Below, piece after piece: positions 25,898 to 37,617 of a stretch of DNA of 64,000 nucleotides. Source of the stretch: a phage. The stretch lies in sequence record PZ171032.1, one strand, 5' to 3'. Position 1 is the first letter of the stretch. Every line of letters begins with the position of its first letter. The notes under the pieces were generated by a model. The model did no database searches, was not told the origin of the DNA, and saw nothing but the letters and a program-made list of their open reading frames with translations. Both the position numbers and the translations under genes were made by a program.

Positions 25898-26739
25898 CAA
25901 TAGTTCAGGTAGGTCGTTAAGCTACCCCGCACCATTACGTGCACAGCCATACAGTTTCCTGTATGGATCGGACTATCTCACTACCTTGTTACCAAGGCAC
26001 CTCCCATTTCGACCGCACTTGCTGGCCTACTCTACTCGCTTCTTCGCACCAATTTATGTTGGCGCTATGCTTTCGATAGTCTCTGAACGTTACTACCAGG
26101 TGTAGTTTTTAGAGATATGTTTCCACTGTCTTCTTTGCTTTATGGCTCTGACCGTCTCATAAGGATACCCAAGATCCCTAATCTCGCATTGTCGTAAACC
26201 ACTTTGTAACAGTTCGCAAATCTCCGTTACCTCATCCTCGGTCAGTACAGCGTTGGCATTATACTCACCGACTGGCCTTACTCTGAGGTCATTATCATAA
26301 GCGTGTTTGATATTTCCACCAGGGGTGGTCCATTCAAGGTTCCAGTATGCATTGTTGTATTTGTTTCCGTCCTTATGGTTCACCCATGTGAGCCTTTCAG
26401 GATCAGGGTTTGATACAAAGCATTCAGCAACCAAGTGGTGGACACCTTTTGTGCACTGCTTCCCCTCGATGAACATGGTTACGCAAAGGTAACCTCGACC
26501 ATTATCAAAACAGAACATTGTTGTATGATCACGTTTCGATAAAGGTATTGTTCCATCATCAAACACGGTATATCCGTGATAATCAACTGATCTAGCCATT
26601 TTAACTACACCCCTTTAGTCTTCGCTGCGGATTAGCATATTGAGCTTTTACCATGTTTAGGTGTAAAAGTCAACTTAGCCTTCCCGTCAATTAAAGAGGT
26701 TTTCGACGTGCATCACTGCACGAAGCCACAATGTTATTT
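25898..26739 (-). mobile_element. putative group I intron (842 nt) carrying an HNH homing endonuclease ORF, inserted in motif C of the DNA polymerase gene
   Basis: exon 1 ends CAU (U at -1), intron ends with G, joining restores Y-Y-H-D-E; GNRA-capped hairpin CCATACAG-GAAA-CTGTATGG at about 25947-25966; HNH ORF in separate frame. Confidence 0.6.
26093..26599 (-). CDS. HNH homing endonuclease
   Basis: HHLVAECFVSNPDPERLTWVNHKDGNKYNNAYWNLEW matches the phage HNH_3-type motif (H-x-V-x-E ... VNH-x-DGNK-x-NN ... NLEW). Confidence 0.8.
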   Translation of the reverse strand: MARSVDYHGYTVFDDGTIPLSKRDHTTMFCFDNGRGYLCVTMFIEGKQCTKGVHHLVAECFVSNPDPERLTWVNHKDGNKYNNAYWNLEWTTPGGNIKHAYDNDLRVRPVGEYNANAVLTEDEVTEICELLQSGLRQCEIRDLGYPYETVRAIKQRRQWKHISKNYTW

Positions 26740-29163
26740 ATGGTAATAGATAATACGACGAACACCTTCATCGTACCACCCACGCTTCACCATTTGGTGG
26801 TGCATAAGTATCCCAACTAAGTCACACAGCGATGCACCACCATTCTGTTGGTATGCATTAAGTAAAGAGTGTTTAGATCGGGTCCAGATGGCATGACCAT
26901 CAAAAGAGTAGATAAACTTCTTACCCGTTGCTTCCCAGAATTTCTCCAGATCCTCTTTACGCCCCTTAAGACCAGGGTTGGCATCCCAAAGTGCATCGAT
27001 CACCCTTTGTCCCAACTCTGGAGAGATGTCCAGCATATCTGCAACTTTATCTTTTTGTGCCCCGTACATAACCCCATACGTGATAGGTTTACCGTCGTTA
27101 CGAGACACCTCTCTGCCTGCTACTTTTGTATATGCCTCAGCATTGTTTTGGTGTGCGTCCCCGTTACTTACAACATCATAATACAAGCCGTTGTCGAACT
27201 CAAAGGCACCCCAAGCCCCGATAAGCTGCTCTAAGTTGGACCCGTCAATACCGATCTCAAAGTATCCTGGAGGAACACCCCACAGACTACGCATCTCTTT
27301 ACCCATAACCACTTTAGGAGATGGTTTAGGCATGTTTGCACAAATACTGTGTTTCTGTCTGGAAGTGTTTGTTAATCCAGAGCTTTTAGCAGGAAGCTTA
27401 TGGTCAATCTTCAAACGTGGGTGATTAAGAAGACCAGTATCAACCTTATCCTCCTTAATTGGATCAAGGACCGATCTGCGGTTTCGCAATGATAACCACA
27501 AGACGATATCTTTAGCCATCTCTCCGTTCAATTTTTCAAGATTCGGACATAGGTGTCCAAACGTATCTTTCAGTTGCGGAGAAGTAATAAGTGCTCTGGC
27601 TTTTCTACGTATTTTCCCGAATACTTCCTTTTTAATCCTTTCGGAGTTAGGAAAGCTTCGGAACTTGTGCACGGTTGTCTGGAACTTAGCATCAGTTTTG
27701 TTCCAGAAGTTGATAATCAGGTCACAATACTCTGACTCTAAAAGCTCGTCCATATATGCATATACTCGTGCATCAACATCTGCATCAGGTAGAGCTTTCT
27801 TCTTGCTGTCTTTAGTTACATCCTTAGTTCTCCACATTGTCGGAAGCCAACCAGCACTGATCAGGTATCGCTTAATATCGTCCTGATTGCTGATTTTCAT
27901 AGGTATCTTGCAGTCAGGCATTCGCTTCTGCTGCAGATCGCTTATTGCCTGATCCATCAGCTCTTTAGGTAAAGGTTGTGGTGTGGAGGTGCCCTTAATA
28001 TAACCTCTCAAGAAATCAGCCATCTTGTCTGGGTCTTTGCAGCCCATCTCTTCACACCATTTTATCCCCATTTTACTGACATCTCCTGTGGAGGTAAATG
28101 CTCGCTTAGGTGGGGCTTTGAACTCTAAAGCGCTCATGTCTACAGGATAGCCAAGCTTATCTTTTAACCATTTCCAACCATTATTGGAGATTGTCCCATC
28201 TTGGTTAAACGGCTTTTCAGGGAACTTGGGCCGCTGAGACATTGACAGCTCTTTTAAAGGTAGTTGTGGTTCAACACGATCAGCTATTTCTTTCATCCAC
28301 GCATCGCAACGGTCACGTAAAGCAATAGCCCCGTCTATGTCGAAATACACACCCTGACGGGCCTGCAGCTCCATCAGGAAGTGCTGCAGCATGCCTCGGC
28401 GTAATGCGTTCTTCCAGGTGATCTTCTTGAACCCTTTTGGCTTCTCTTTGGCAGGATCGTACATAAAGTTCTGCATGTCAGATTTGCCGTAGAATACACC
28501 TTTTGATTCCGCTACCAGCTCTTTCCAGAGCAGCTCCTGGATGATAACGTCCTCGAATACACGATCCACATACTTCCACAGCGGAAGATCGCGCCAGTCA
28601 TCAATTTGAACTTTCTGGTTACCAAGAGCGTAGCCCCATGCCATAAGGCCGTGAGGACCAACAGGCTGCATTTTCTTAGTAACCGGGTTGAATACAGAGT
28701 CCGGACAACCTTTTGGTAAAGGGCGATCAGGCCACAAGATTCGGCTCATCGCCAACGTATCGAACAGGTTAACCTGGTGGTCGTTGATAGTCCCCATACA
28801 TTTAGGATCACGGAACATATCAAAATGAATACCGGATAATCTCTCCATCAGCATAAAGTCATAACTGTAGCAGTTATGGCAGTTCAAAGCTGTTGGTGAC
28901 CAGTCGGAATTTCCTGTAAGCCAACCTTCCAACTCCGAAAAATCTGCTATGCGAACTTCAAAATCTTTATAAAGAGTTTTCTTTGCCAGAATAAAGTTCT
29001 TAGCCTTCTCTATATCCTCCTCGGAGTAGTGTGTGCGGTCATTTAGAGGAAGGAACAGCATAAAACGGTTCTTATTCAGCTCTTTAAACAGGCCGCAATG
29101 ATAATAAAGATCTGGGTCTTCCAGCAAACCGGATGACTCAAAATCGAACGACCACATGCTCAT
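26740..29163 (-). CDS. family A DNA polymerase (T7 gp5 / Pol I-like), exon 1 with 3'-5' exonuclease and polymerase motifs A and B
   Basis: Exo I FDFESSG; motif A IGIDGSNLEQL; motif B RNDGKPITYGVMYGAQ; ORF stops at ...IIYYH-K* exactly where motif C HDE is expected. Confidence 0.85.
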
Positions 29164-29221: not shown

Positions 29222-31300
29222 TTAAAAAGGTGTTTCATCATCCTCAAAACCAGGAACATGGTCAGAGGACGGATCATCGTACTGGAGGTCTTCCTGCGTG
29301 TCAACAGGCTTAACAGTAGGAGTTACAACCTTATCAGCCACAACCTTACCCATAGGTGTTTCTACAACTGCATGCTCCTGATCCTCAAACATAGCCTGAG
29401 GTCTCCAAACAACCTCCCCACCTTCTCCATCTGTAAACATTTGCATTTCTTTGTCCCAGTACCAATTACTGGCATCATGGAACTTACCTGTATGTGGGTC
29501 CATAACCAAAGTGTCTGCAATACCTAAAGTTTTTGCTGGACGGTTTTTAAGACCTACCAGTCGGACACGCCCACGAGAACGATCCACCATTTCTTCGGCC
29601 TCGACACCTATGACTACCCAACTCAACTGTTCAAGCCCAGCCGATCCTCGCAAATTCTCTTTTCGCACAGGATACCAGAAAGGTAACGGGTTACCATCCT
29701 TGTCCTTAGGAGGCACAATCTCTGTACGTTTGAGGTGAGCGATCACCAAGATAAACACATTGAACTGCTTACAAAACGCAGCCAGCTGGGTCATAGCCAT
29801 GTCCAGTTCTTTTCGCTCATCCTTAACATTAAGCCCCGAAATTACCATAGACAGGTGATCCAGCACAATATAACGGCAATGGTACAGGCAAACCATTTGC
29901 TTAAGCTTGGTAATCAACTCGTCCACCGGAATAGACCCGAAATGTTTGAACACTTTGATTTTTCCAGCTTTTGCCCATGATTGGTGAATCTCTGCGTGTT
30001 CTTGATCAGTTAAAAACTGGCTAGGATCTTCAACAAACTCTTTAACATCAAACCCTAGCTGGTTTGCATACAAGGAGTTAATTGCTTCCTCTGGGTCCTC
30101 CTCAAGATGGATCATGCATAGACGATCATCCTCTTCATAGTCATCGGCCTTCGGGCATGTCGGGTCCATCAAGTATCTTGCAATACAATGTTCCAGTTTT
30201 TTAGCTACAGTTGTTTTACCGCCCCCTGATGGCCCTGTAAGCATTACGAGTGTCCCTTTGTGCAAGCCTTTTAGCATTTTTTGCAGTTTTGGAAACTCTG
30301 CGCTGATATCTACCCCGTTGGAAGTCTTTTTCCGCAAAGATTCGATAGAGAAGTCTTCTAAATCCGACACAGCATCAGGCACATACTTAACAGGATGCCG
30401 GAACATGTTTACAATATCTTCCAGCTTTTTAGCCTTTAGCATGTCACGGATATCTTTTACACCGTCAGGATCGTTTACCTCACCGGGGTATTCTACGTGG
30501 TAAACGTTATCAGCCATCAAAAATGCTGCGATATTGTGCGTGGCCTCAACACCTTTAATGACGTGTTTTTGCTTCTCTACCTCGTTAGCTGCATCGTTAT
30601 CCATTGCCAGCACAACTGTTCCATAGCTACGGATAAACTTCTCATTGTTTGCAAAAGTATCTACTGCGTTTGCACATCCACAGTTAATTCCAACAAAAGG
30701 CAGGCATGGTTTTCCTGCCAGATCGCCACCGTTGATAACTGCATCGATCCCGTCCTGGACCTCTTTAGCCCACTGTTTCACCTTTGCCGGGGCTTTAGCG
30801 TTGGTGAGAATCCCTTTTACTTGTATCTGATATGCAGCCTGCCATGCTGCAATAACATCACCTTCTCCCTCACAAACGTTAATCTGCTTACGGTTGTTGG
30901 AAGATGCACACAGCTTTTGACCAAACATCTGAGAGTTAGCCTTTACTATGCCAACAACGGAGAAATGGCCTCTTTGCTCTTTAGGAATCGTCCAGTCACG
31001 CTTTTTGAAACCGGACAGATTTCCGTAGCGGTCGTAATATGGGAAATATGTTGCAGTGACTGTCACACCATCTTCTTGGGATAATGCTGATCGCACACCA
31101 AAATATTGTGCAGCCATCAGACCGATATTTTGTTGTGGGACAGGGACAATTTTAGTATTTTCTAAAACAGTCTCTACAGTTTCAACTTCTTTTTCATCAC
31201 GATAGTCTCGTTTCACACTTCCCCCACTTTTATACTTAGTTGCTTTCGGGTTTGGCTCACCGAAACGGTTGTATGCAGATGCCATAAATTTACTTCCCAT
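29222..31300 (-). CDS. primase-helicase (T7 gp4-like: TOPRIM primase plus DnaB-family helicase)
   Basis: TOPRIM-like CEGEGD; Walker A GPSGGGKTT; Walker B-like FILVIAH; 692 aa; adjacent to DNA polymerase. Confidence 0.85.
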   Translation of the reverse strand: MGSKFMASAYNRFGEPNPKATKYKSGGSVKRDYRDEKEVETVETVLENTKIVPVPQQNIGLMAAQYFGVRSALSQEDGVTVTATYFPYYDRYGNLSGFKKRDWTIPKEQRGHFSVVGIVKANSQMFGQKLCASSNNRKQINVCEGEGDVIAAWQAAYQIQVKGILTNAKAPAKVKQWAKEVQDGIDAVINGGDLAGKPCLPFVGINCGCANAVDTFANNEKFIRSYGTVVLAMDNDAANEVEKQKHVIKGVEATHNIAAFLMADNVYHVEYPGEVNDPDGVKDIRDMLKAKKLEDIVNMFRHPVKYVPDAVSDLEDFSIESLRKKTSNGVDISAEFPKLQKMLKGLHKGTLVMLTGPSGGGKTTVAKKLEHCIARYLMDPTCPKADDYEEDDRLCMIHLEEDPEEAINSLYANQLGFDVKEFVEDPSQFLTDQEHAEIHQSWAKAGKIKVFKHFGSIPVDELITKLKQMVCLYHCRYIVLDHLSMVISGLNVKDERKELDMAMTQLAAFCKQFNVFILVIAHLKRTEIVPPKDKDGNPLPFWYPVRKENLRGSAGLEQLSWVVIGVEAEEMVDRSRGRVRLVGLKNRPAKTLGIADTLVMDPHTGKFHDASNWYWDKEMQMFTDGEGGEVVWRPQAMFEDQEHAVVETPMGKVVADKVVTPTVKPVDTQEDLQYDDPSSDHVPGFEDDETPF

Positions 31301-32054
31301 TAATTCTGCTCCTTACTACAGGCTCGTTTGCTAAGAATACGGCTTTTGCCCAGCCACGTGGTGTGAGGCTTCGAATCATCTTCGTTCTTGCACTCTTTCC
31401 ACCCAGCTTGGCGTGTTGCATGGAATACCCGCTAACCACGTCAACTATTTGCGGGACAGGTTTTGTGGCCGGGATTATAAATCCATTACCTATCCAGCCG
31501 CAAGTTATTTTTGGATAGGCATCACGTGGAGCTATAAATTCAGGAAACCATGGGTTTACATCATCTTCCGGTAAATACCCGCCATAGTCAGAAGGATGAA
31601 AACGGTAATCAGGTTTGCGCCACAGTGTGGACATAACACCTACAGGATTCTCTACATGCCACGGGCAATCGTAAATCTCTCCCAGCTCTTCCGCAACCCG
31701 AGCATCCCTTACAGCATTAATTTGGATCATGGGATCCTTAGCCAGCTTTTTCTTAAAATGTGCAGCACCTGATACCGCTAAATGCGTGCACGGAGGAAAT
31801 GCAAGAATAAAGTCTGGAGCTGGGTACATGCAAAAAGTTTCCTGAGGGAACCATGGGTCAATCCAATAATCCACATAGTGAATGTTGGGATGATCGGTTA
31901 TCACCTCTGCATAACTGCCGTGATCAGCACCTTCTGCATTAAAGCACAGGCACAGATACCCAGCTTTTGCCCAGTCAATGACTGCACCACCAGATCCGTC
32001 AAATAGGCTCCACACAACACCTTTGTGGTAGTGTTCTTTGTAGATAAATTTCAA
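31290..32054 (-). CDS. DNA (cytosine-5)-methyltransferase-like protein
   Basis: motif I SLFDGSGG (F-x-G-x-G-G), motif IV FPPC (PC), motif VI HVENPVGV (ENV); start moved to TTG at 32054 with AGGAGA RBS because the track start lies inside a terminator hairpin. Confidence 0.55.
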   Translation of the reverse strand: MKFIYKEHYHKGVVWSLFDGSGGAVIDWAKAGYLCLCFNAEGADHGSYAEVITDHPNIHYVDYWIDPWFPQETFCMYPAPDFILAFPPCTHLAVSGAAHFKKKLAKDPMIQINAVRDARVAEELGEIYDCPWHVENPVGVMSTLWRKPDYRFHPSDYGGYLPEDDVNPWFPEFIAPRDAYPKITCGWIGNGFIIPATKPVPQIVDVVSGYSMQHAKLGGKSARTKMIRSLTPRGWAKAVFLANEPVVRSRINGK

Positions 32055-32072
32055 TTTGCTGTCTCCTAATGC

Positions 32073-32100
32073 AAAAAGCCCCACCCTTTCGGGCAGGGCC
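32073..32100 (-). terminator. rho-independent terminator (second copy of GNRA-looped element), minus strand
   Basis: minus strand GGCCCTGCCC-GAAA-GGGTGGGGC followed by TTTTT; near-identical to 20444-20471. Confidence 0.6.
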
Positions 32101-32105
32101 TAGTG

Positions 32106-32588
32106 TTAAACCCGGATACCTATTGTATACTCGGTGGATACCAATGTCAAATCTAAATTTAAAATTTCTTGCATCTCATAATATGCGTCCAGGGTGAGAT
32201 ACATTTCCCCATCCTTTTCTACATACTTGTCCAAGTGCTTGAGGCATTTCGGATAACTATCGAGTGCAGCTTTCAGACACTCAAACTCTGTGCTGTTGAT
32301 GAGTCCTTCCATCTTGGCTACCCGTTCTGGGGTAACGATAGCACTGTAGTGAGATTTAGCTTCCTGAATGCAATGGGTCCAAGCATCAACTTTCTCTTCG
32401 AAAAGCCCGAAGAATTTCTTTTTGGTGAGCTTCAGATTCTTTAAGTGCTTAAGCACTCGGTTGCCGATCACAGCCACATCACGAAACTTAAGGATCACTT
32501 TGTCGATATCCTCGCGGCCTATTTTCACAAAGCAAGCCTCACACATTTCAGGAGCTGCGTAACCTACTTTCCACATAAAATCTGACAT
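32106..32588 (-). CDS. hypothetical protein
   Basis: ORF; no motif. Confidence 0.55.
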   Translation of the reverse strand: MSDFMWKVGYAAPEMCEACFVKIGREDIDKVILKFRDVAVIGNRVLKHLKNLKLTKKKFFGLFEEKVDAWTHCIQEAKSHYSAIVTPERVAKMEGLINSTEFECLKAALDSYPKCLKHLDKYVEKDGEMYLTLDAYYEMQEILNLDLTLVSTEYTIGIRV

Positions 32589-32600
32589 AACACTATCTCC

Positions 32601-32999
32601 TTATTCTTCCTGAAAAGCAACGATATCATATGAACTTGCAGACGATCCTGGTGAAGAATGACTCCAGTCTAGGTCATCAGAGTAGTCAGCGTACTGTGCA
32701 CCACTACGTAGTTTATATTTTACCCACTTACCTGGTGCAGGGTTTTCACCACCTTCCCATACTTCCCAGCCTTCTGGCAGGCCGTCCTGGGAATAGTCAT
32801 CCACCTCACTAATAATCTTAGGGTTTGGCACCAAGATCCCTGCAGGCTCTTCCTTCCGGATAAGTGTCCACACAACATAGGTGTCTGAGCAGGCGCATGA
32901 TAGCAAAGTATATCCACTATTCAGAACTTCTGCAAGCTCTTTTTCAGCATCTTCCAATTTGGTTAAGTGGTATTGGAGAATCTTCACACCTGTAATCAT
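32601..32999 (-). CDS. hypothetical protein
   Basis: ORF; no motif. Confidence 0.55.
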   Translation of the reverse strand: MITGVKILQYHLTKLEDAEKELAEVLNSGYTLLSCACSDTYVVWTLIRKEEPAGILVPNPKIISEVDDYSQDGLPEGWEVWEGGENPAPGKWVKYKLRSGAQYADYSDDLDWSHSSPGSSASSYDIVAFQEE

Positions 33000-33343
33000 C
33001 AGAAACCTCCCACTTCTTCGGCAAATGCAGCTGCTGTCGTCGCTGCATCCAGATAGGACTCTAGTTCACGGGCTGCACGTTTGTAAATTGAGTGGCGAAT
33101 ATCGTTTGGCAGTTGGTAGAAGTCCACCTCTTCACCGTTGTGGTAAACATGCACATCAGTGATCTGTCTAAATCCGTAATAGTCAACATCAGAATCACGG
33201 CACTCCGGGTCTGGCAACTGGACAACTGCCTGAGCTTCTACAGTGAACATATCGTCAAGTTCGAAATCGATTTCAAAAGTGTATGGTTTATAACGTTTCA
33301 TCATTTGATTGTACTCTTTATTGATCAGACTTATCTTTCGCAA
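32999..33343 (-). CDS. hypothetical protein
   Basis: ORF; start may be at internal ATG (MMKRY). Confidence 0.55.
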   Translation of the reverse strand: MRKISLINKEYNQMMKRYKPYTFEIDFELDDMFTVEAQAVVQLPDPECRDSDVDYYGFRQITDVHVYHNGEEVDFYQLPNDIRHSIYKRAARELESYLDAATTAAAFAEEVGGF

Positions 33344-34643
33344 TTAAGGTCGGGGCAAGTTTGTAATAACGGAAGCCACCACCACCTTGCCAGTTTACAG
33401 ACTTAGAAATACCACCTTGATCTTCCCCATCGATCACTTTTTCCAAGCGCGGAATAATATGGGTATGGCAATGATCACCAATCTCGATGGAGATCCAACG
33501 TCTTTTCATCTTGTGAGCTACAGCGGCAGTAGTTCCCGAACCACCGAATGAATCCAATACCAAATCACCTTCTCGCGTACACATTTCGAAAATCCGCTTC
33601 AAAAGCGCTTCTGGTTTTTTCCCATTTTTGAAACTAACGCCGCCTTCATTTGCTATTCCATTCCAACTAATGTCTGTCCAAACATCAGTTATTAGTTCCG
33701 CAGGTTGCATATCACCGTCAATTTCCAAAAGCCTGTTGGAGTAAAAGACCATTTGCCTACCATTTGCGATATAAAATCCTTCAACATCCTCATTTGGATG
33801 TACATAAACCTTATCCCTATCTTTCTTTGACTTCTCTATAGTTTCTTTTCTCTTTATTTTAGCACCACCACCAATTGCAACAGATTGAAATACACGTTCT
33901 GCATTATCAATTGCAAATTGTGCTAATTCATCATCGAATGTGTCAGGCAGTTTTTTCTTGGCTTCTTTTGCATCTTTATAGCCATTGGCCTTTGCAAACG
34001 CATCGGCAATACCGCACCACGTCCAATTTTTATAATGATCATCCGGGTTTAATAGGTATTTGTTATATCCGGTATCATAACCTTTAGGTATATAGATTTT
34101 GTTAAGCGGTTTCTGGGTGCGATCTTTTGCATATACAAGCAAAAAGTTTGCTGTGGAGAAAACTGTGGCTCCTGTTGCCTTAAATCCCGAAGGGGAATTT
34201 GTGGTCATCGATATGGTATTTAACTGATTTGCACGACCAAAAATCTCGTCCATCAAAACTTTTAAATACGCCATTTCGCAATCATCTAAGTGAACGAATA
34301 TTACCCCGTCATCACTTAGAAGATTACGAATTATTTCTAACCTATCCCTCATTAAGCCCAGCCAAATGGAATGCTCCAGACTATCATCGTAGTGCTCAAA
34401 AGCCCTCCCGGTGTTGAATGGTGGGTCTATGTAAACACACTTCACTTTGCCTGCGTACTCTTGCTCTAGCGCCTTCAATGCTAATAAGTTATCTCCAAAA
34501 ATCAGCTTATTATCAAAAATATCGTTTTCGGTAACTCTCTGGCTGTGGTAAGACTTACTCGAATCTTCTAACAAAATGTGCGGCTCTAATTTTTTGCGCT
34601 CGTTTTTACCTATCCAGGTAAGTTCTAATTTGGTTTTGCTCAT
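33318..34643 (-). CDS. DNA N6-adenine / N4-cytosine methyltransferase (beta-class amino-methyltransferase)
   Basis: catalytic motif IV VYIDPPFNTG (DPPF) in N-terminal part and AdoMet motif I SFGGSGTT near the C-terminus (beta-class order). Confidence 0.75.
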   Translation of the reverse strand: MSKTKLELTWIGKNERKKLEPHILLEDSSKSYHSQRVTENDIFDNKLIFGDNLLALKALEQEYAGKVKCVYIDPPFNTGRAFEHYDDSLEHSIWLGLMRDRLEIIRNLLSDDGVIFVHLDDCEMAYLKVLMDEIFGRANQLNTISMTTNSPSGFKATGATVFSTANFLLVYAKDRTQKPLNKIYIPKGYDTGYNKYLLNPDDHYKNWTWCGIADAFAKANGYKDAKEAKKKLPDTFDDELAQFAIDNAERVFQSVAIGGGAKIKRKETIEKSKKDRDKVYVHPNEDVEGFYIANGRQMVFYSNRLLEIDGDMQPAELITDVWTDISWNGIANEGGVSFKNGKKPEALLKRIFEMCTREGDLVLDSFGGSGTTAAVAHKMKRRWISIEIGDHCHTHIIPRLEKVIDGEDQGGISKSVNWQGGGGFRYYKLAPTLIAKDKSDQ

Positions 34644-34704
34644 CGTTTGGTGCTCTCCTTAGTTTTTTGTGGGGAGGAGGCCTCCCCTTTATACTCACAT
34701 CTTA

Positions 34705-35046: not shown

Positions 35047-36413
35047 ACGTCCCCCTCTTCGGCTCTGGTTTCAAAATCTTTCCTGACAATTTTGTCTAAG
35101 TCAGGGAATGTTGTATTGTAAAACTCTACGACTCGCGGGTCAACAATAATGTCAACTTCTCTTAGTGGACGCAACAAGTTTATTCCTTGTATTGTCTTAA
35201 CTCTGCTCAAAGCGACATACGTCATCCCAGGAGAGAAAGCTCCGTTCTTTCCAAGGTCTAGGTTGTAACAATCTAGCGTAAGTCCTTGACTTTTATGAGA
35301 TGTTACGGCGTACCCAGATTTCAGAGGAAGTTGCTTGTATGACCCAATCACTACCCTCTCTATAAACTTCTCCATCTTCCTTTCTGCAATGTTGTATCTC
35401 TGAGATGGCTTATACTCGTTATTCTCCCACAACCTCTGCTCTATGTCAACCTGTGTTCCATCTTCAAGCTCTACCACCACCGCCTTGTTCTTAAATTTAA
35501 CAATTGTGGCACGTGTTCCGTTAACATAATAAGGTACTTTGTGCGTCGGGTCAACATCGTTGGCGGTTATCATAACTTTCATGCCAATTTTCAACTTCAT
35601 CTCCTGCTCAACTGGCAGGGTGGAGGGAAACTTACCCTTCATTTCCCCAGTGTATACCTTCTCCGGGGCGTTGATGGCATCATAGAACCTTCTGTTCACT
35701 TCCTCTGCTTGTTTGTTGGTGGCGCAAATTGTGAGAGCGTCTGTTGGTACACCGCCTTTGTAACAGCGAGCATTAAGTTCTGCTACAACCTCTTTTATGC
35801 GACGACCCTCACGAACACAGTTGAGCATTGTGGCAAATCGAATAGACTCCTGTCGGAACTGATCTATTAGGGCTATGTTGTGGAGGTCAAGCTCTTTCCA
35901 AGATTCGGTATAGCAACACAGGTCTGTATGGTAGAAGTTGAAGTAGGCTTCCTTCTCCATAGAAGAGACAACAGGAGGTGCCTGGTAAAAATCGCCAAAC
36001 AATATGACCTGTATGCCTCCGAAAGGTTTGTCATTTTTTCGAAGGAAGCGAAGTTTCCTATCCATCTCTATAAACTTATCAGCACGGATCATAGAGATTT
36101 CATCGATAATCAGGATGGTAAATGCCTTGCTTTTCAAAGGCTTTGCTGTTTTTGCCCTTATTGCGGTCCAGTCTGACTCCATGCTCACACCTGCTGCAAG
36201 ATCGAAGGTTCGGTGTGCTGTTGCTCCATTAACGTTTAAAGCGGCTACCCCTGTCGGGGCAACCGTTATGCAAGAGTCTCCATACATTGACTGGATCATG
36301 TTGATGAGGTACGTCTTCCCACAACCTGCGGGTCCTGAAACGAAGACATTCTCACCGCTCATGATTGCAACGAGGGCAGCATCTGTGCCTACATCATACT
36401 GCCCTTTTTCCAT
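35043..36413 (-). CDS. Dda / RecD-like SF1 DNA helicase
   Basis: Walker A GPAGCGKTY; motif II IIDEISM; FGDFYQAPPV; motif VSHKSQGLTLD near C-terminus. Confidence 0.85.
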   Translation of the reverse strand: MEKGQYDVGTDAALVAIMSGENVFVSGPAGCGKTYLINMIQSMYGDSCITVAPTGVAALNVNGATAHRTFDLAAGVSMESDWTAIRAKTAKPLKSKAFTILIIDEISMIRADKFIEMDRKLRFLRKNDKPFGGIQVILFGDFYQAPPVVSSMEKEAYFNFYHTDLCCYTESWKELDLHNIALIDQFRQESIRFATMLNCVREGRRIKEVVAELNARCYKGGVPTDALTICATNKQAEEVNRRFYDAINAPEKVYTGEMKGKFPSTLPVEQEMKLKIGMKVMITANDVDPTHKVPYYVNGTRATIVKFKNKAVVVELEDGTQVDIEQRLWENNEYKPSQRYNIAERKMEKFIERVVIGSYKQLPLKSGYAVTSHKSQGLTLDCYNLDLGKNGAFSPGMTYVALSRVKTIQGINLLRPLREVDIIVDPRVVEFYNTTFPDLDKIVRKDFETRAEEGDV

Positions 36414-36691
36414 TACGCCTCCTCGTAAAGAATGTCGATAGTGTTACCGTCTCGGTCAACCACGTATTCAATCGGGTCTCCGTCCTTGCGTGCTTCCGGA
36501 GCTACCACAATCTCATAGCGGCATGCACGGCACTTAGCGCTATTGTGTTGGTATGGCACACTAACCACATCTGCAGGGTCAACCATGACAGTCATTACAG
36601 TGCCGTAGCTCTTCGCATACTCTTTGCTGGCGCAGTGTAAGCCATAGGAGCACGCAGCTTCAGGATCATCCTCTACAAAGTTACGAGGCAT
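36413..36691 (-). CDS. hypothetical protein (start uncertain; frame overlaps 3' end of upstream gene)
   Basis: track ORF starts at TTG 36778 overlapping upstream gene by about 100 nt in another frame; first in-frame ATG at 36691. Confidence 0.4.
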   Translation of the reverse strand: MPRNFVEDDPEAACSYGLHCASKEYAKSYGTVMTVMVDPADVVSVPYQHNSAKCRACRYEIVVAPEARKDGDPIEYVVDRDGNTIDILYEEA

Positions 36692-37617
36692 GGATACAAA
36701 AGCACCTTGGTATTGTGGGACTTTACCACTGTGCCAATCCACCCACTTGCTACCGTTAAACTGAACCCTTTGTAGCAAATGATTCGACCATCTTCTGCAA
36801 TCTGAATATCATTGGCCTGCATAAAATCGTAGAGCATGTTTACAGATTTTGCAGAAGGATTGCGTAGCAGGCGAACGAGGAATTTCACATAGCGGTCATC
36901 CAGCGTTCCGTCTGCATAATCTTTCTCAATTTTCTTTGCAATGGTGGATCGCATCTCTACACCGTAGTAGTAGAGCTTACCATCTTTCATGATCAGGTTG
37001 TCTGCAAGTGTGGTGAACTCATTCTTGCGTTCCAGCCAGACAAGGATTTCACCAATTGCCTCGTCATATTCCTGAACAGAGATATGGTCGAAGACTTTCT
37101 GGTAAACTTCCTCACTTTCGCTGCGGCGAATTTCAAAAATGCCTTCGTTGCAGGTGATCTGGAGGAGTTCCCCACAAATAACTACCAAAGGCTCGATGCT
37201 TCGAGTTTGTTGCTGAGACACACTGCTCACCACCTCCAGCACCGGATCTTTGACTTCTACTAAAGGTTCTTCTGACTTGATTGCCACCCCAGTGAACCCC
37301 ACACCGTGAACAACACACAGTGGGTATACCACGCCCCAACGTTTAACGGAACCTTCGCCTAAGTCTAAGATCATGGCGTACTTACCATTATCTTCCAATC
37401 CATAGCGGAATAAACGGGCCTCTTCGCGGGTTTCAAAATCCTCACGGGTGTAGCAGACGCTGTCACGGTCAGGATCGAACAACTCTGGGGCACCCACTGC
37501 CAGTGTCCAGGTTGTGTCGCCTTTCTCAATGGCACATGTGAAACCCTTCTTCTCAAGTTCTGCACGGCGGTCTCGTGCTTCTTTACGGGTTTTGAAATGT
37601 TCGTAGATGAAAATCAT
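36673..37617 (-). CDS. hypothetical protein with two N-terminal about 40-aa repeats
   Basis: repeated module (YEHFKTRKEARDRRAELEKKGF... / YTREDFETREEARLFRYGLEDNGKY...). Confidence 0.55.
   Translation of the reverse strand: MIFIYEHFKTRKEARDRRAELEKKGFTCAIEKGDTTWTLAVGAPELFDPDRDSVCYTREDFETREEARLFRYGLEDNGKYAMILDLGEGSVKRWGVVYPLCVVHGVGFTGVAIKSEEPLVEVKDPVLEVVSSVSQQQTRSIEPLVVICGELLQITCNEGIFEIRRSESEEVYQKVFDHISVQEYDEAIGEILVWLERKNEFTTLADNLIMKDGKLYYYGVEMRSTIAKKIEKDYADGTLDDRYVKFLVRLLRNPSAKSVNMLYDFMQANDIQIAEDGRIICYKGFSLTVASGWIGTVVKSHNTKVLLYPCLVTL

Follow-up and report, generated by a model that had tools for sequence, protein, structure and literature searches.

Two solitary DNA methyltransferase genes in the replication module of an rV5-like coliphage: a minimal C5-cytosine enzyme and a truncated relative of an Escherichia coli Type III Mod protein

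Organization of the methyltransferase locus

The analyzed DNA (hereafter the window) is a stretch of 64,000 nt from an rV5-like coliphage, and two methyltransferase (MTase) ORFs were found on its minus strand (Table 1). A preliminary description of the sequence had proposed two DNA MTases of different chemistry, and both ORFs were confirmed by profile matches and motifs, the assignments being well beyond chance (PF01555, E 1.6e-42; PADLOC MTase_III, E 6.8e-205; phrog_757, E 5.6e-87). The pair is already known, as it is named in curated public records. As first described it is also routine, since it is known that several orphan methyltransferases can be found in any one rV5-like phage.

The spacing between the two genes, put at about 1.3 kb in the preliminary description, measured 1,263 bp from the TTG start of the smaller gene and 1,233 bp from its GTG start. 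Because the flanking genes encode a PIF1/Dda-like helicase, a primase/helicase and a DNA polymerase, the earlier placement of the pair in the replication module is correct. The three small ORFs between the MTase genes are kept across Vequintavirus and are not parts of the MTases; the PHROGs that they matched all lack an assigned function, and no match to them was obtained in Pfam, NCBIfam or PADLOC.

No cognate restriction endonuclease had been recognized before, and our searches agree: no homologue was found in the window by tblastn with the E. coli Res as query, and the only endonucleases annotated across the full genome of Bas51, a close relative, are of the homing type, with no restriction endonuclease among them. 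Both genes thus encode orphan MTases, that is, phage MTases lacking a cognate restriction endonuclease.

Table 1. Position of the two methyltransferase genes and of the associated features in the window.
Feature	Position	Strand	Basis
Minimal C5-cytosine DNA methyltransferase ("Dcm-like"), 254 aa	31290..32054	-	TTG start after AGGAG ribosome-binding site
C5 enzyme, motif VI ENP, residues 135-137, ENV-type Glu	31644..31652	-	Invariant in alignment; equals E128 of K42 Dcm
C5 enzyme, motif IV FPPC, residues 86-89, catalytic C89	31788..31799	-	Invariant in 25/25 aligned homologues
C5 enzyme, motif I FDGSGG, SAM-binding, residues 18-23	31986..32003	-	Aligned with motif I of DNMT3B and M.HaeIII
Terminator-like hairpin, 11-bp stem with 7 GC pairs, then T run	32076..32101	-	Between the 160-aa ORF and the C5-MTase start
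Three small ORFs between the MTase genes (160 aa, 132 aa, ~101 aa)	32106..33304	-	PHROGs 12900, 11995, 4240
Block matching the 1.35-kb 5' part of a chromosomal E. coli Type III mod at ~93.5% DNA identity	33309..34656	-	blastn
Truncation point, 11-bp deletion relative to E. coli mod, frame shifted to ...KDK-SDQ-stop	33318..33332	-	DNA alignment
Orphan Type III Mod-like beta-class amino-MTase, 441 aa, predicted N6-adenine	33318..34643	-	PF01555, E 1.6e-42
Mod-like enzyme, motif I FGGSGTT, SAM-binding, residues 366-372	33528..33548	-	Downstream of motif IV
Mod-like enzyme, motif IV DPPF, catalytic, residues 73-76	34416..34427	-	Aligned with DPPY of EcoP15I Mod and 6k0w

The minimal C5-cytosine methyltransferase

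The mechanical ORF of the smaller gene (31290..32084, 264 aa) begins with a GTG that sits within the terminator-like hairpin. The TTG at 32054, with AGGAG just upstream, yields a protein of 254 aa, and the curated BASEL records take the same start. Motifs I, IV and VI follow each other in the order that characterizes C5-MTases. Motifs I and IV occur as previously described, whereas the motif VI read earlier as ENV is in fact ENP. C89 and E135 do not vary among 25 homologues, nor do FDGSG, PPC and ENP across the same alignment. A conserved WRKPD may replace motif VIII (QxRxR). Motif IX (RSLTPRG) is present, and the C-terminus follows about 20 residues on, with no recognizable motif X (GN[AS]V).

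A profile search had been suggested for settling the class of this protein. PF00145 matched 18 of the 25 family members (best E 1.3e-06), but gave no match to the window protein itself even at E <= 10, and no Pfam threshold was reached. The protein has the C5-methyltransferase fold, and by this fold and by its family membership it is a true C5-methyltransferase homologue. In comparison to M.HhaI, M.HaeIII and the catalytic domain of DNMT3A/B (PF00145), it is distinguished by the absence of a recognizable motif X, a very small recognition region and a sub-threshold Pfam score, and it is ~70-100 residues shorter than the bacterial enzymes.

The closest biochemical guide is the Dcm of phage K42/KarlJaspers (Drexlerviridae), the trigger of retron Ec86 (Eco1). 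Dcm of this type raises 5mC in msDNA as measured by LC-MS, and no such rise was seen with the C82A/E128A/K175A/K176A mutant (bioRxiv 10.1101/2023.08.16.553469). The K42 and window proteins belong to the same family of minimal size (236 and 254 aa), share 53% identity, and have the catalytic Cys, Glu and Lys in common: C82, E128 and K175 of K42 are all matched, C82, one of the four residues jointly mutated in the inactive variant, by C89. By analogy with K42, the window enzyme would make 5-methylcytosine in DNA, with Cys89 (PPC) and Glu135 (ENP) driving the standard covalent mechanism. There are differences as well: the host phages belong to different families, Lys176 of K42 is Ile183 here, and the loop between motifs VIII and IX reads GYSxQHxKLGG in the window protein and DxNPGWxKxGG in K42. 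The target may be CCWGG, as assumed for the K42 relative. This site was assigned to K42 Dcm by analogy and is backed only by msDNA mutagenesis; for this reason, and due to the different VIII-IX loop subtype, the CCWGG specificity is not transferable to the window enzyme.

The unusual shortness of the C5-like enzyme had led to the suggestion that it belongs to a base-modification pathway. In such a scenario the protein would not methylate but would take part in hypermodification, for instance as a carboxymethyltransferase using host carboxy-SAM. The example is CmoX of Synechococcus phage S-B43, a DNA cytosine C5-carboxymethyltransferase with an SPPC motif, a carboxylate-binding Arg350 and cmoA/cmoY as neighbors. 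We regard this as scarcely probable. A length of 225-260 aa is usual in the very large phage family of this protein (present in 1505 of 50,697 phage records), which removes the argument from size. CmoX candidates are defined by SPPC together with Arg at the position of M.HhaI Asn304, but the window protein reads FPPC and lacks a motif X segment, and in the annotation of Bas51 there is no cmoA, CmoY-type ligase or other modification gene. In addition, 5mC was detected by LC-MS for the 53%-identical family member, and the strong restriction of Vequintavirinae by EcoRI and EcoRV is unlike the behavior of hypermodified DNA.

The Type III Mod-like methyltransferase

The assignment of the 441-aa protein to the beta-class amino-MTases stood: DPPF is N-terminal to FGGSGTT, with an insertion of ~100 residues relative to the PF01555 profile. 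The PADLOC MTase_III model (PDLC03636) covers the protein at model positions 2-444 of 575, and among proteins of known structure its best matches are the Mod subunits 6k0w and EcoP15I (4zcf). It retains the N-terminal domain (NTD), the MTase core and the inserted target recognition domain (TRD), but the C-terminal Res-docking domain (CTD) is gone. Thus, the four-domain architecture of Type III Mods is incomplete, and there is no adjacent res gene. EcoP15I Mod (PDB 4ZCF), the prototype structure for methylation subunits of Type III systems, has the same beta-class order and the same arrangement of NTD, MTase domain and inserted TRD (phmmer E 2.7e-24 for the phage protein). It differs in belonging to another subfamily, with low identity and another PADLOC model, in its Res-binding CTD (residues 539-644), missing in the phage protein, and in its own recognition site, CAGCAG.

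Judging from motif and family, the predicted product is far more likely N6-methyladenine than N4-methylcytosine, because of the DPPF motif and because the best matches of known structure are adenine-specific Mods. The gene is called bamHIM in some GenBank and UniProt records, and the label "modification methylase BamHI" would make the protein an N4-cytosine methyltransferase. PF01555 indeed spans both N6A and N4C enzymes, and over the motif I region there are weak matches to M.PvuII and to rotifer N4C methyltransferases. Even so, we consider the N4-cytosine assignment very improbable. N4C enzymes such as M.PvuII typically carry Ser in motif IV, where the phage protein has the Asp of DPPF; adenine-specific Type III Mods are by far the best matches; and to our knowledge every characterized Type III Mod makes m6A. 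The abundant m6A in Bas51 DNA also speaks for adenine, as a measurement of whole virion DNA rather than of single enzymes.

All relatives examined carry an intact copy of the gene, and dN/dS is 0.02-0.18 among the phage mod copies and between these and E. coli mod. This purifying selection suggests that the function of the gene has been retained.

Origin of the mod gene and its truncation

The 441-aa protein is 96% identical over residues 1-437 to a Mod of E. coli (cluster P0273, WP_213054361, APEC E16002). At the nucleotide level, phage mod and E. coli mod are 93.5-94.5% identical. A single blastn block joins the phage region and locus L008 (93.5% identity, 1363 columns); it begins 13 nt before the ATG and ends ~10 nt beyond the stop codon of the phage gene. 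The two proteins share the NTD, DPPF, the TRD, FGGSGTT and the same PADLOC MTase_III model. The E. coli protein has 567-568 aa with an alpha/beta C-terminal domain and is followed by res, whereas the phage copy has 441 aa and neither CTD nor res. In E. coli, mod is directly followed by the gene for a 912-aa Res (PADLOC REase_III, E 8.8e-191; Pfam ResIII), and the mod-res pairing is also found in relatives from Pseudomonas and Acinetobacter. The donor-type mod was present in 24-29 of 5426 complete E. coli genomes; at about 0.5%, the donor-type mod-res is an odd target for a gene that is genus-wide in the phages.

In the model of the full-length E. coli Mod, residues ~440-540 form a folded alpha/beta domain, and the model aligns end to end with 4zcf_A and 6k0w_A (Foldseek E 1.2e-20 to EcoP15I). 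Phage residue 439 aligns with residue ~522 of EcoP15I Mod, whose MTase domain extends to 516 and whose CTD begins at 539. On this alignment the truncation falls in the linker that joins these two domains in Type III Mods. No homologue of the missing CTD was found in the window; the ORF that follows mod does not encode it, nor is that ORF shared by L009, the other phage context.

In EcoP15I, Res is contacted extensively by the CTD of ModA, the NTD and MTase domains mediate dimerization, and Mod2 is a stand-alone adenine methylase (PMC4490356). Since the NTD dimerization helices, the MTase core and the TRD are all kept, the phage protein is expected to form a Mod2 dimer and to N6-methylate adenine at the site of the E. 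coli Mod. Given the 96% identity, this recognition site is presumably the same; it is probably short and asymmetric. The 441-aa protein would then represent the methylating half of a Type III restriction-modification (R-M) system from a host.

With a dS of about 0.2, it is conceivable, although we would give it somewhat less than an even chance, that mod was captured recently from a host Type III system and cut at the hinge before the Res-docking domain, so as to become a "Res-blind" copier of the host self-mark that does not bring in the host nuclease and may also titrate host Mod into dimers with a single docking domain. The E. coli allele is nearer to the mod allele of the window phage than another Vequintavirus allele is, and the captured gene has possibly been refreshed more than once by recombination. 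Copies of mod that lack the CTD and end in different tails are present in other phage contexts, and, taken with the closeness of the E. coli allele, this suggests that trimming of the docking domain may be general for phage-captured Type III Mods. The clean loss of this domain makes the phage protein a naturally occurring separation-of-function variant of Type III Mods.

Methylation in the relative Bas51

The Bas51 orthologues of the two proteins are 98.9% and 99.2% identical to those of the window. Nanopore m6A calls for Bas51 virion DNA, which describe the whole DNA and not individual enzymes, covered 1405 of 1406 GATC adenines and 509 of 516 GTAC adenines, with 349-576 further calls at other positions. 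The GTAC methylation is phage-made, since the host does not make this pattern. Modification of virion DNA beyond the host pattern, the absence of which was to have spoken against the preliminary description, was therefore observed in this relative. Two other orphan MTases from the same phage genus, bas51_0176 and bas51_0200, resemble the window pair in being solitary, but they are unrelated to it in sequence and their genes lie outside the window. The former, a third enzyme of 177 aa, is a GATC adenine methylase and the source of the GATC activity; methylation of the phage genome by this enzyme has been demonstrated, as has its triggering of retrons Asa1 and Squ1. The Bas51 genome thus holds four different methyltransferases.

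Possible role of the two methyltransferases

Overall, the two proteins are probably active, solitary DNA MTases, expressed with the replication genes and methylating newly made phage DNA at two short motifs that differ from each other. Most likely, both pre-mark phage DNA against matching host restriction. We infer activity, target sites and anti-restriction benefit from two bodies of evidence: the fold and family assignments, the origin of the mod gene, its truncation point, the purifying selection and the absence of a nuclease, all observed in the present analysis; and, from the work of others on relatives, the 5mC produced by a family member and the phage-made m6A in Bas51 virion DNA. As the Res-docking CTD is missing, phage DNA could be protected from the host Type III enzyme without arming Res. 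Vequintavirinae were found to be exceptionally sensitive to six tested R-M systems, two of Type III among them (PMC8594841), so that whatever protection the enzymes give must be narrow and tied to specific sites.

The same sensitivity could mean that the MTases serve no anti-restriction role at all and instead regulate replication, packaging or the timing of transcription, or are nearly neutral passengers. The location of the genes within the replication module and the rarity of the donor R-M system in E. coli are in line with this, and the BASEL authors saw no simple link between MTase genes and restriction resistance in Drexlerviridae (PMC8594841). We nevertheless consider it unlikely: the near-identity to the host Mod and the precise loss of the docking domain are hard to explain except as mimicry of a protective mark, a dN/dS well below 1 excludes neutrality, and four different methyltransferases in one genome fit a multi-target shield.

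It is also quite improbable that the truncated Mod is mainly a decoy, whose heterodimers with the host Mod poison Mod2Res1 assembly, with DNA methylation being secondary. The EcoP15I-type dimer interface (NTD and MTase domains) is kept while the Res-docking CTD is lost, and mixed dimers are plausible at 96% identity to the host protein. However, all catalytic motifs and the TRD, dispensable for a pure decoy, are under strong purifying selection, and only one CTD per EcoP15I dimer contacts Res (PMC4490356), so that a heterodimer could still bind it. A decoy effect is compatible with protective methylation rather than exclusive of it.

If the protective role holds, the near-identity to the host Mod pairs a phage counter-defense with the one bacterial system that it should defeat, and the phage methylome could reveal the recognition site of that host Type III system. 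Phage MTases also carry a cost, since they are sensed by retrons (PMC12548924; bioRxiv 10.1101/2023.08.16.553469). Both enzyme types are sensed in this way, the Dcm-like type by Ec86 and a Vequintavirus adenine methylase by Asa1 and Squ1, and these genes would therefore influence the host range of a therapeutic rV5-like phage.

Genomic setting of the methyltransferase pair

The window belongs to a Vequintavirus (rV5-like myovirus), and the 4 kb around its two methyltransferase genes share 99.9% identity with Escherichia phage JES2013 and O157 typing phage 4; a total of 118 phage records have this region at 90% identity or more. The two methyltransferase ORFs of the preliminary description are both located on the minus strand (see the table), and the length of 254 aa for the C5-cytosine enzyme is borne out by the TTG start used in curated BASEL records. 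The genes are separated by three small ORFs of unknown function and are flanked by genes for a PIF1/Dda-like helicase, a primase/helicase and DNA polymerase. The pair is an ordinary finding, already annotated in public records as “Dcm-like C5 cytosine methyltransferase” and “putative N6 adenine methyltransferase” or [quoted passage not shown] What our analysis adds to this annotation is a host-derived, “Res-blind” Mod, i.e., one without the putative Res-docking C-terminal domain (CTD).

Sixteen unannotated GenBank records named “Campylobacter phage” (MG065644-MG065690, host C. jejuni) were 97.7–98.3% identical to this coliphage region; these entries are likely mislabelled or contaminated.

Features of the methyltransferase region and of neighbouring genes
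Feature	Coordinates	Strand	Remarks
DNA polymerase region	26093..29163	-	polymerase ORF ends at 809 aa
168-aa ORF	26093..26599	-	follows the polymerase ORF
C5-methyltransferase ORF, longest form	31290..32084	-	GTG start
C5-methyltransferase, 254 aa	31290..32054	-	start 32054; TTG preceded by AGGAG ribosome-binding site
Terminator-like hairpin	32076..32101	-	strong; encloses GTG of the longer C5 ORF; just before the C5-methyltransferase ribosome-binding site
Sigma-70-like promoter match	32122..32150	-	TTGACA, 17 nt, TACAAT; 11/12 positions
ORF directly downstream of mod	32999..33343	-	
441-aa Mod ORF	33318..34643	-	
Perfect GC-rich hairpin	34671..34687		GGGGAGG-CCT-CCTCCCC
rIIB	36413..37617	-	two overlapping ORFs, 36673..37617 and 36413..36778

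Truncation of the phage Mod

The 441-aa protein matched the Pfam family N6_N4_Mtase (PF01555; E 1.6e-42) and carries DPPF (residues 73–76) N-terminal to FGGSGTT (residues 366–372), which is the beta-class order. Its top solved relatives are the Type III Mod subunits 6k0w, EcoP15I (4zcf) and Mbo45V, and the PADLOC model for Type III methyltransferases was matched with an E value of 6.8e-205, at positions 2–444 of 575 only. The 90% identity cluster of the protein includes an E. coli chromosomal protein of 567–568 aa, with 96% identity across the shared part; at the DNA level, the mod genes of the phage and E. coli are 93.5–94.5% identical. The homology forms a single block, from 13 nt 5′ of the ATG to approximately 10 nt past the phage stop codon. 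According to the DNA alignment, 11 bp are deleted from the phage gene after ...AAAGATAAGT, the frame moves into SDQ-stop, and the similarity is gone approximately 25 nt after the frameshift. Neither the missing ~130 C-terminal residues nor Res has a counterpart anywhere in the window. The earlier observation of two orphan methyltransferases is confirmed.

The ORF directly downstream of mod was considered as the missing CTD and rejected, since the old frame is left only as a 12-residue remnant (INKEYN). It was also rejected as a travelling partner of mod, because an unrelated ORF takes its place in another phage context.

The Mod of EcoP15I consists of an N-terminal domain (NTD, residues 14–60), a methyltransferase domain (62–262 and 390–516), a target-recognition domain (263–384) and the CTD (539–644); the dimer interface is formed by the NTD and methyltransferase domains, Mod2 by itself is a competent methylase, and extensive contacts with Res are made by the CTD of ModA (PMC4490356). 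The last aligned residue of the phage protein, 439, corresponds to approximately residue 522 of EcoP15I, in the linker ahead of the CTD. Given this end point and the domain roles in EcoP15I, the phage Mod is predicted to retain all parts needed for dimerisation, DNA recognition and methylation, with the nuclease-docking module gone. In its AlphaFold model, the full-length E. coli Mod has a folded alpha/beta domain at approximately residues 440–540, and the model aligns over its full length with 4zcf_A and 6k0w_A (E ~1e-20). That the CTD of this Mod subfamily binds Res we infer from its position and the architecture, no sequence homology having been detected. We found no description of CTD-less phage Mods in the literature.

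Probable host origin and possible exchange of mod alleles

Among 5426 complete E. coli genomes, 24–29 have the E. coli mod gene; sequenced carrier strains include CFSAN004176 and 2014C-3011. In strain APEC E16002 the gene is followed, after a 21 bp gap, by the gene for a 912-aa protein matching both REase_III of PADLOC (E 8.8e-191) and ResIII of Pfam. The locus (NZ_CP126944, 915984-920450) is a bona fide mod-res operon within a defence island, and the full-length relatives of Mod in Pseudomonas and Acinetobacter show the same mod-res pairing. The GC content of mod, ~40% in phage and E. coli alike, is uninformative on the direction of transfer.

The dN/dS values of mod were 0.02–0.04 among close phage copies, 0.07 in comparison to E. 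coli and 0.14–0.18 in comparison to a more distant phage copy, values that argue for a retained function of the truncated protein. The substitutions between the phage and E. coli Mod are few, conservative and mostly outside the motifs, so that the two proteins probably share the same specificity. The dS to the window mod was 0.23 for the E. coli allele (locus L008, 8998..10704), about half of the 0.47 found for another Vequintavirus-type copy (locus L012, 6001..7344). The L012 Mod stops six residues later and has a different tail, yet joins the same downstream ORF, and a third, mosaic CTD-less copy has another location, with phoH and clpP as neighbours, in a different phage. Taken together, these sequence comparisons suggest that phage and host mod alleles have been exchanged repeatedly, never bringing in the CTD.

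A DrmD-like SNF2 helicase (~950 aa) was always found upstream of full-length mod-res, in E. coli (L008, 3106..13464), Pseudomonas (L013, 1..9538) and Acinetobacter (L014, 366..9571). The cassette between the helicase and mod-res is variable (AbiD with AbiU/AIPR, an SMC-like ATPase with AIPR, or AAA_21 with DUF4276), and the E. coli locus has a mad1-like HTH gene upstream. The mod-res loci thus resemble a conserved array in which one position is a hot spot for insertions, not a plain two-gene Type III system.

Class and chemistry of the C5 protein

The C5 class assigned to the 254-aa protein from its motifs was upheld by fold comparison but not by sequence profiles: searches of Pfam, NCBIfam and PADLOC gave no match, and the C5-methyltransferase matches among PDB sequences (phmmer and profile) were all sub-threshold (best profile E 0.058), so that sequence searches were insufficient for the placement. 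According to a preprint, retron Ec86 is triggered by the Dcm of phage K42, whose gene is 711 bp long; K42 itself shares 95.4% identity with KarlJaspers. In LC-MS, K42 Dcm raises 5mC in msDNA, whereas no such rise is seen with its C82A/E128A/K175A/K176A mutant (10.1101/2023.08.16.553469). KarlJaspers and other Hanriverviruses have 711-bp genes for 236-aa proteins in which C82, E128, K175 and K176 occur at exactly these positions, and Dcm of this type is 53% identical to the window protein. The LC-MS result, together with these matching proteins, argues that the family consists of genuine 5mC DNA methyltransferases. For K42 Dcm, CCWGG was assumed as the site from the analogy with host Dcm and is backed only by msDNA mutation (10.1101/2023.08.16.553469). 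Compared with K42 Dcm, the window protein has another subtype of the loop lying between motif VIII and motif IX, so CCWGG cannot be transferred to it.

The preliminary description raised a base-modification pathway as an alternative for this short enzyme. Among natural C5-methyltransferase homologues, CmoX is the only one known to transfer a non-methyl group; its hallmarks are SPPC, Arg at the position of M.HhaI Asn304 and cmoA/cmoY neighbours (PMC12783734). The 254-aa protein, in contrast, has FPPC and stops before any motif X; no cmoA/cmoY-type genes are annotated in the genus, and Vequintavirinae are strongly restricted by EcoRI and EcoRV. A CmoX-like hypermodification role is thus highly improbable.

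Methylation of Bas51 DNA

Phage Bas51 (WalterGehring; MZ501111) encodes orthologues of both window methyltransferases (98.9% and 99.2% identical) and two more adenine methyltransferases, both outside the window region. Nanopore m6A calls in Bas51 numbered 1405 at GATC, 509 at GTAC and 576 elsewhere (PMC12548924 supplement S4), and those in the T83P mutant 35, 511 and 349, respectively (PMC12548924 supplement). As the genome has 703 GATC and 258 GTAC sites, methylation of the two motifs is virtually complete on either strand; m6A occupies 509 of the 516 GTAC adenines in virion DNA, independently of the GATC enzyme bas51_0176. The latter (177 aa) is the enzyme mutated in T83P, being the sole protein with D69, D79 and T83. 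Orthology of the 441-aa protein to the Bas51 enzyme published as “N6 adenine methyltransferase” (GATC, retron trigger) was therefore rejected; bas51_0176 is missing from the window.

The GTAC mark and the ~349 m6A calls in neither motif were left without comment by the authors (PMC12548924). The residual 349 calls are of the order of magnitude that an asymmetric 5-bp site would give over 141 kb, an agreement that is not evidence for such a site, and word counts relative to expectation (GTAC 0.58, CCWGG ~0.7) are too unspecific for site assignment. GTAC methylation is not known from K-12, so the GTAC m6A of Bas51 must be made by bas51_0200 or by the Mod orthologue. Since known Type III Mods have asymmetric recognition sites, bas51_0200, which has no match in Pfam or PDB, is the favoured candidate for the GTAC enzyme. 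No methylome study of rV5 itself was found in the literature.

Proposed role

Protection from host restriction, as suggested initially, is supported as the best reading of the data: the phage would methylate its own DNA in advance, at specific sites, to counter the host restriction enzymes that match them. Mod is a near-copy of the methylation subunit of an E. coli mod-res system and would protect phage DNA from the very system from which it was copied. Two caveats apply to the protective role, namely, the exceptional R-M sensitivity of these phages in BASEL phenotyping (PMC8594841) and the rarity of the donor mod-res operon in E. coli. The benefit is further qualified by the exposure of phages to retron sensing through their methyltransferases (10.1101/2023.08.16.553469; PMC12548924).

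Additional observations

A promoter scan of the region gave 11 matches vs. 10.3 in shuffled controls, i.e., no excess. One near-consensus sigma-70-like match lies within the 3′ end of a 160-aa ORF and is followed by the terminator-like hairpin and then by the C5-methyltransferase ribosome-binding site. In the 61-nt gap that immediately precedes the mod ribosome-binding site, the perfect hairpin has an A run 3′ of it on the coding strand and so scores as a terminator for the opposite strand only; in L012, a similar hairpin occurs 3′ of the mod stop codon.

An indel near 36768 splits the rIIB gene: where JES2013 and the BASEL phages, whose 1206-nt gene is intact, read AAAGGGG, the window reads AAAGGG and is one G short. 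This may reflect either a sequencing error in the homopolymer or a real frameshift. JES2013 and Bas51 have an HNH gene separating polymerase from primase, which is missing from the corresponding position here. In Bas51, the polymerase gene is split by a homing endonuclease encoded in an intron (bas51_0077 joined, bas51_0078); the 168-aa ORF after the polymerase ORF of the window corresponds to this endonuclease in size and position.
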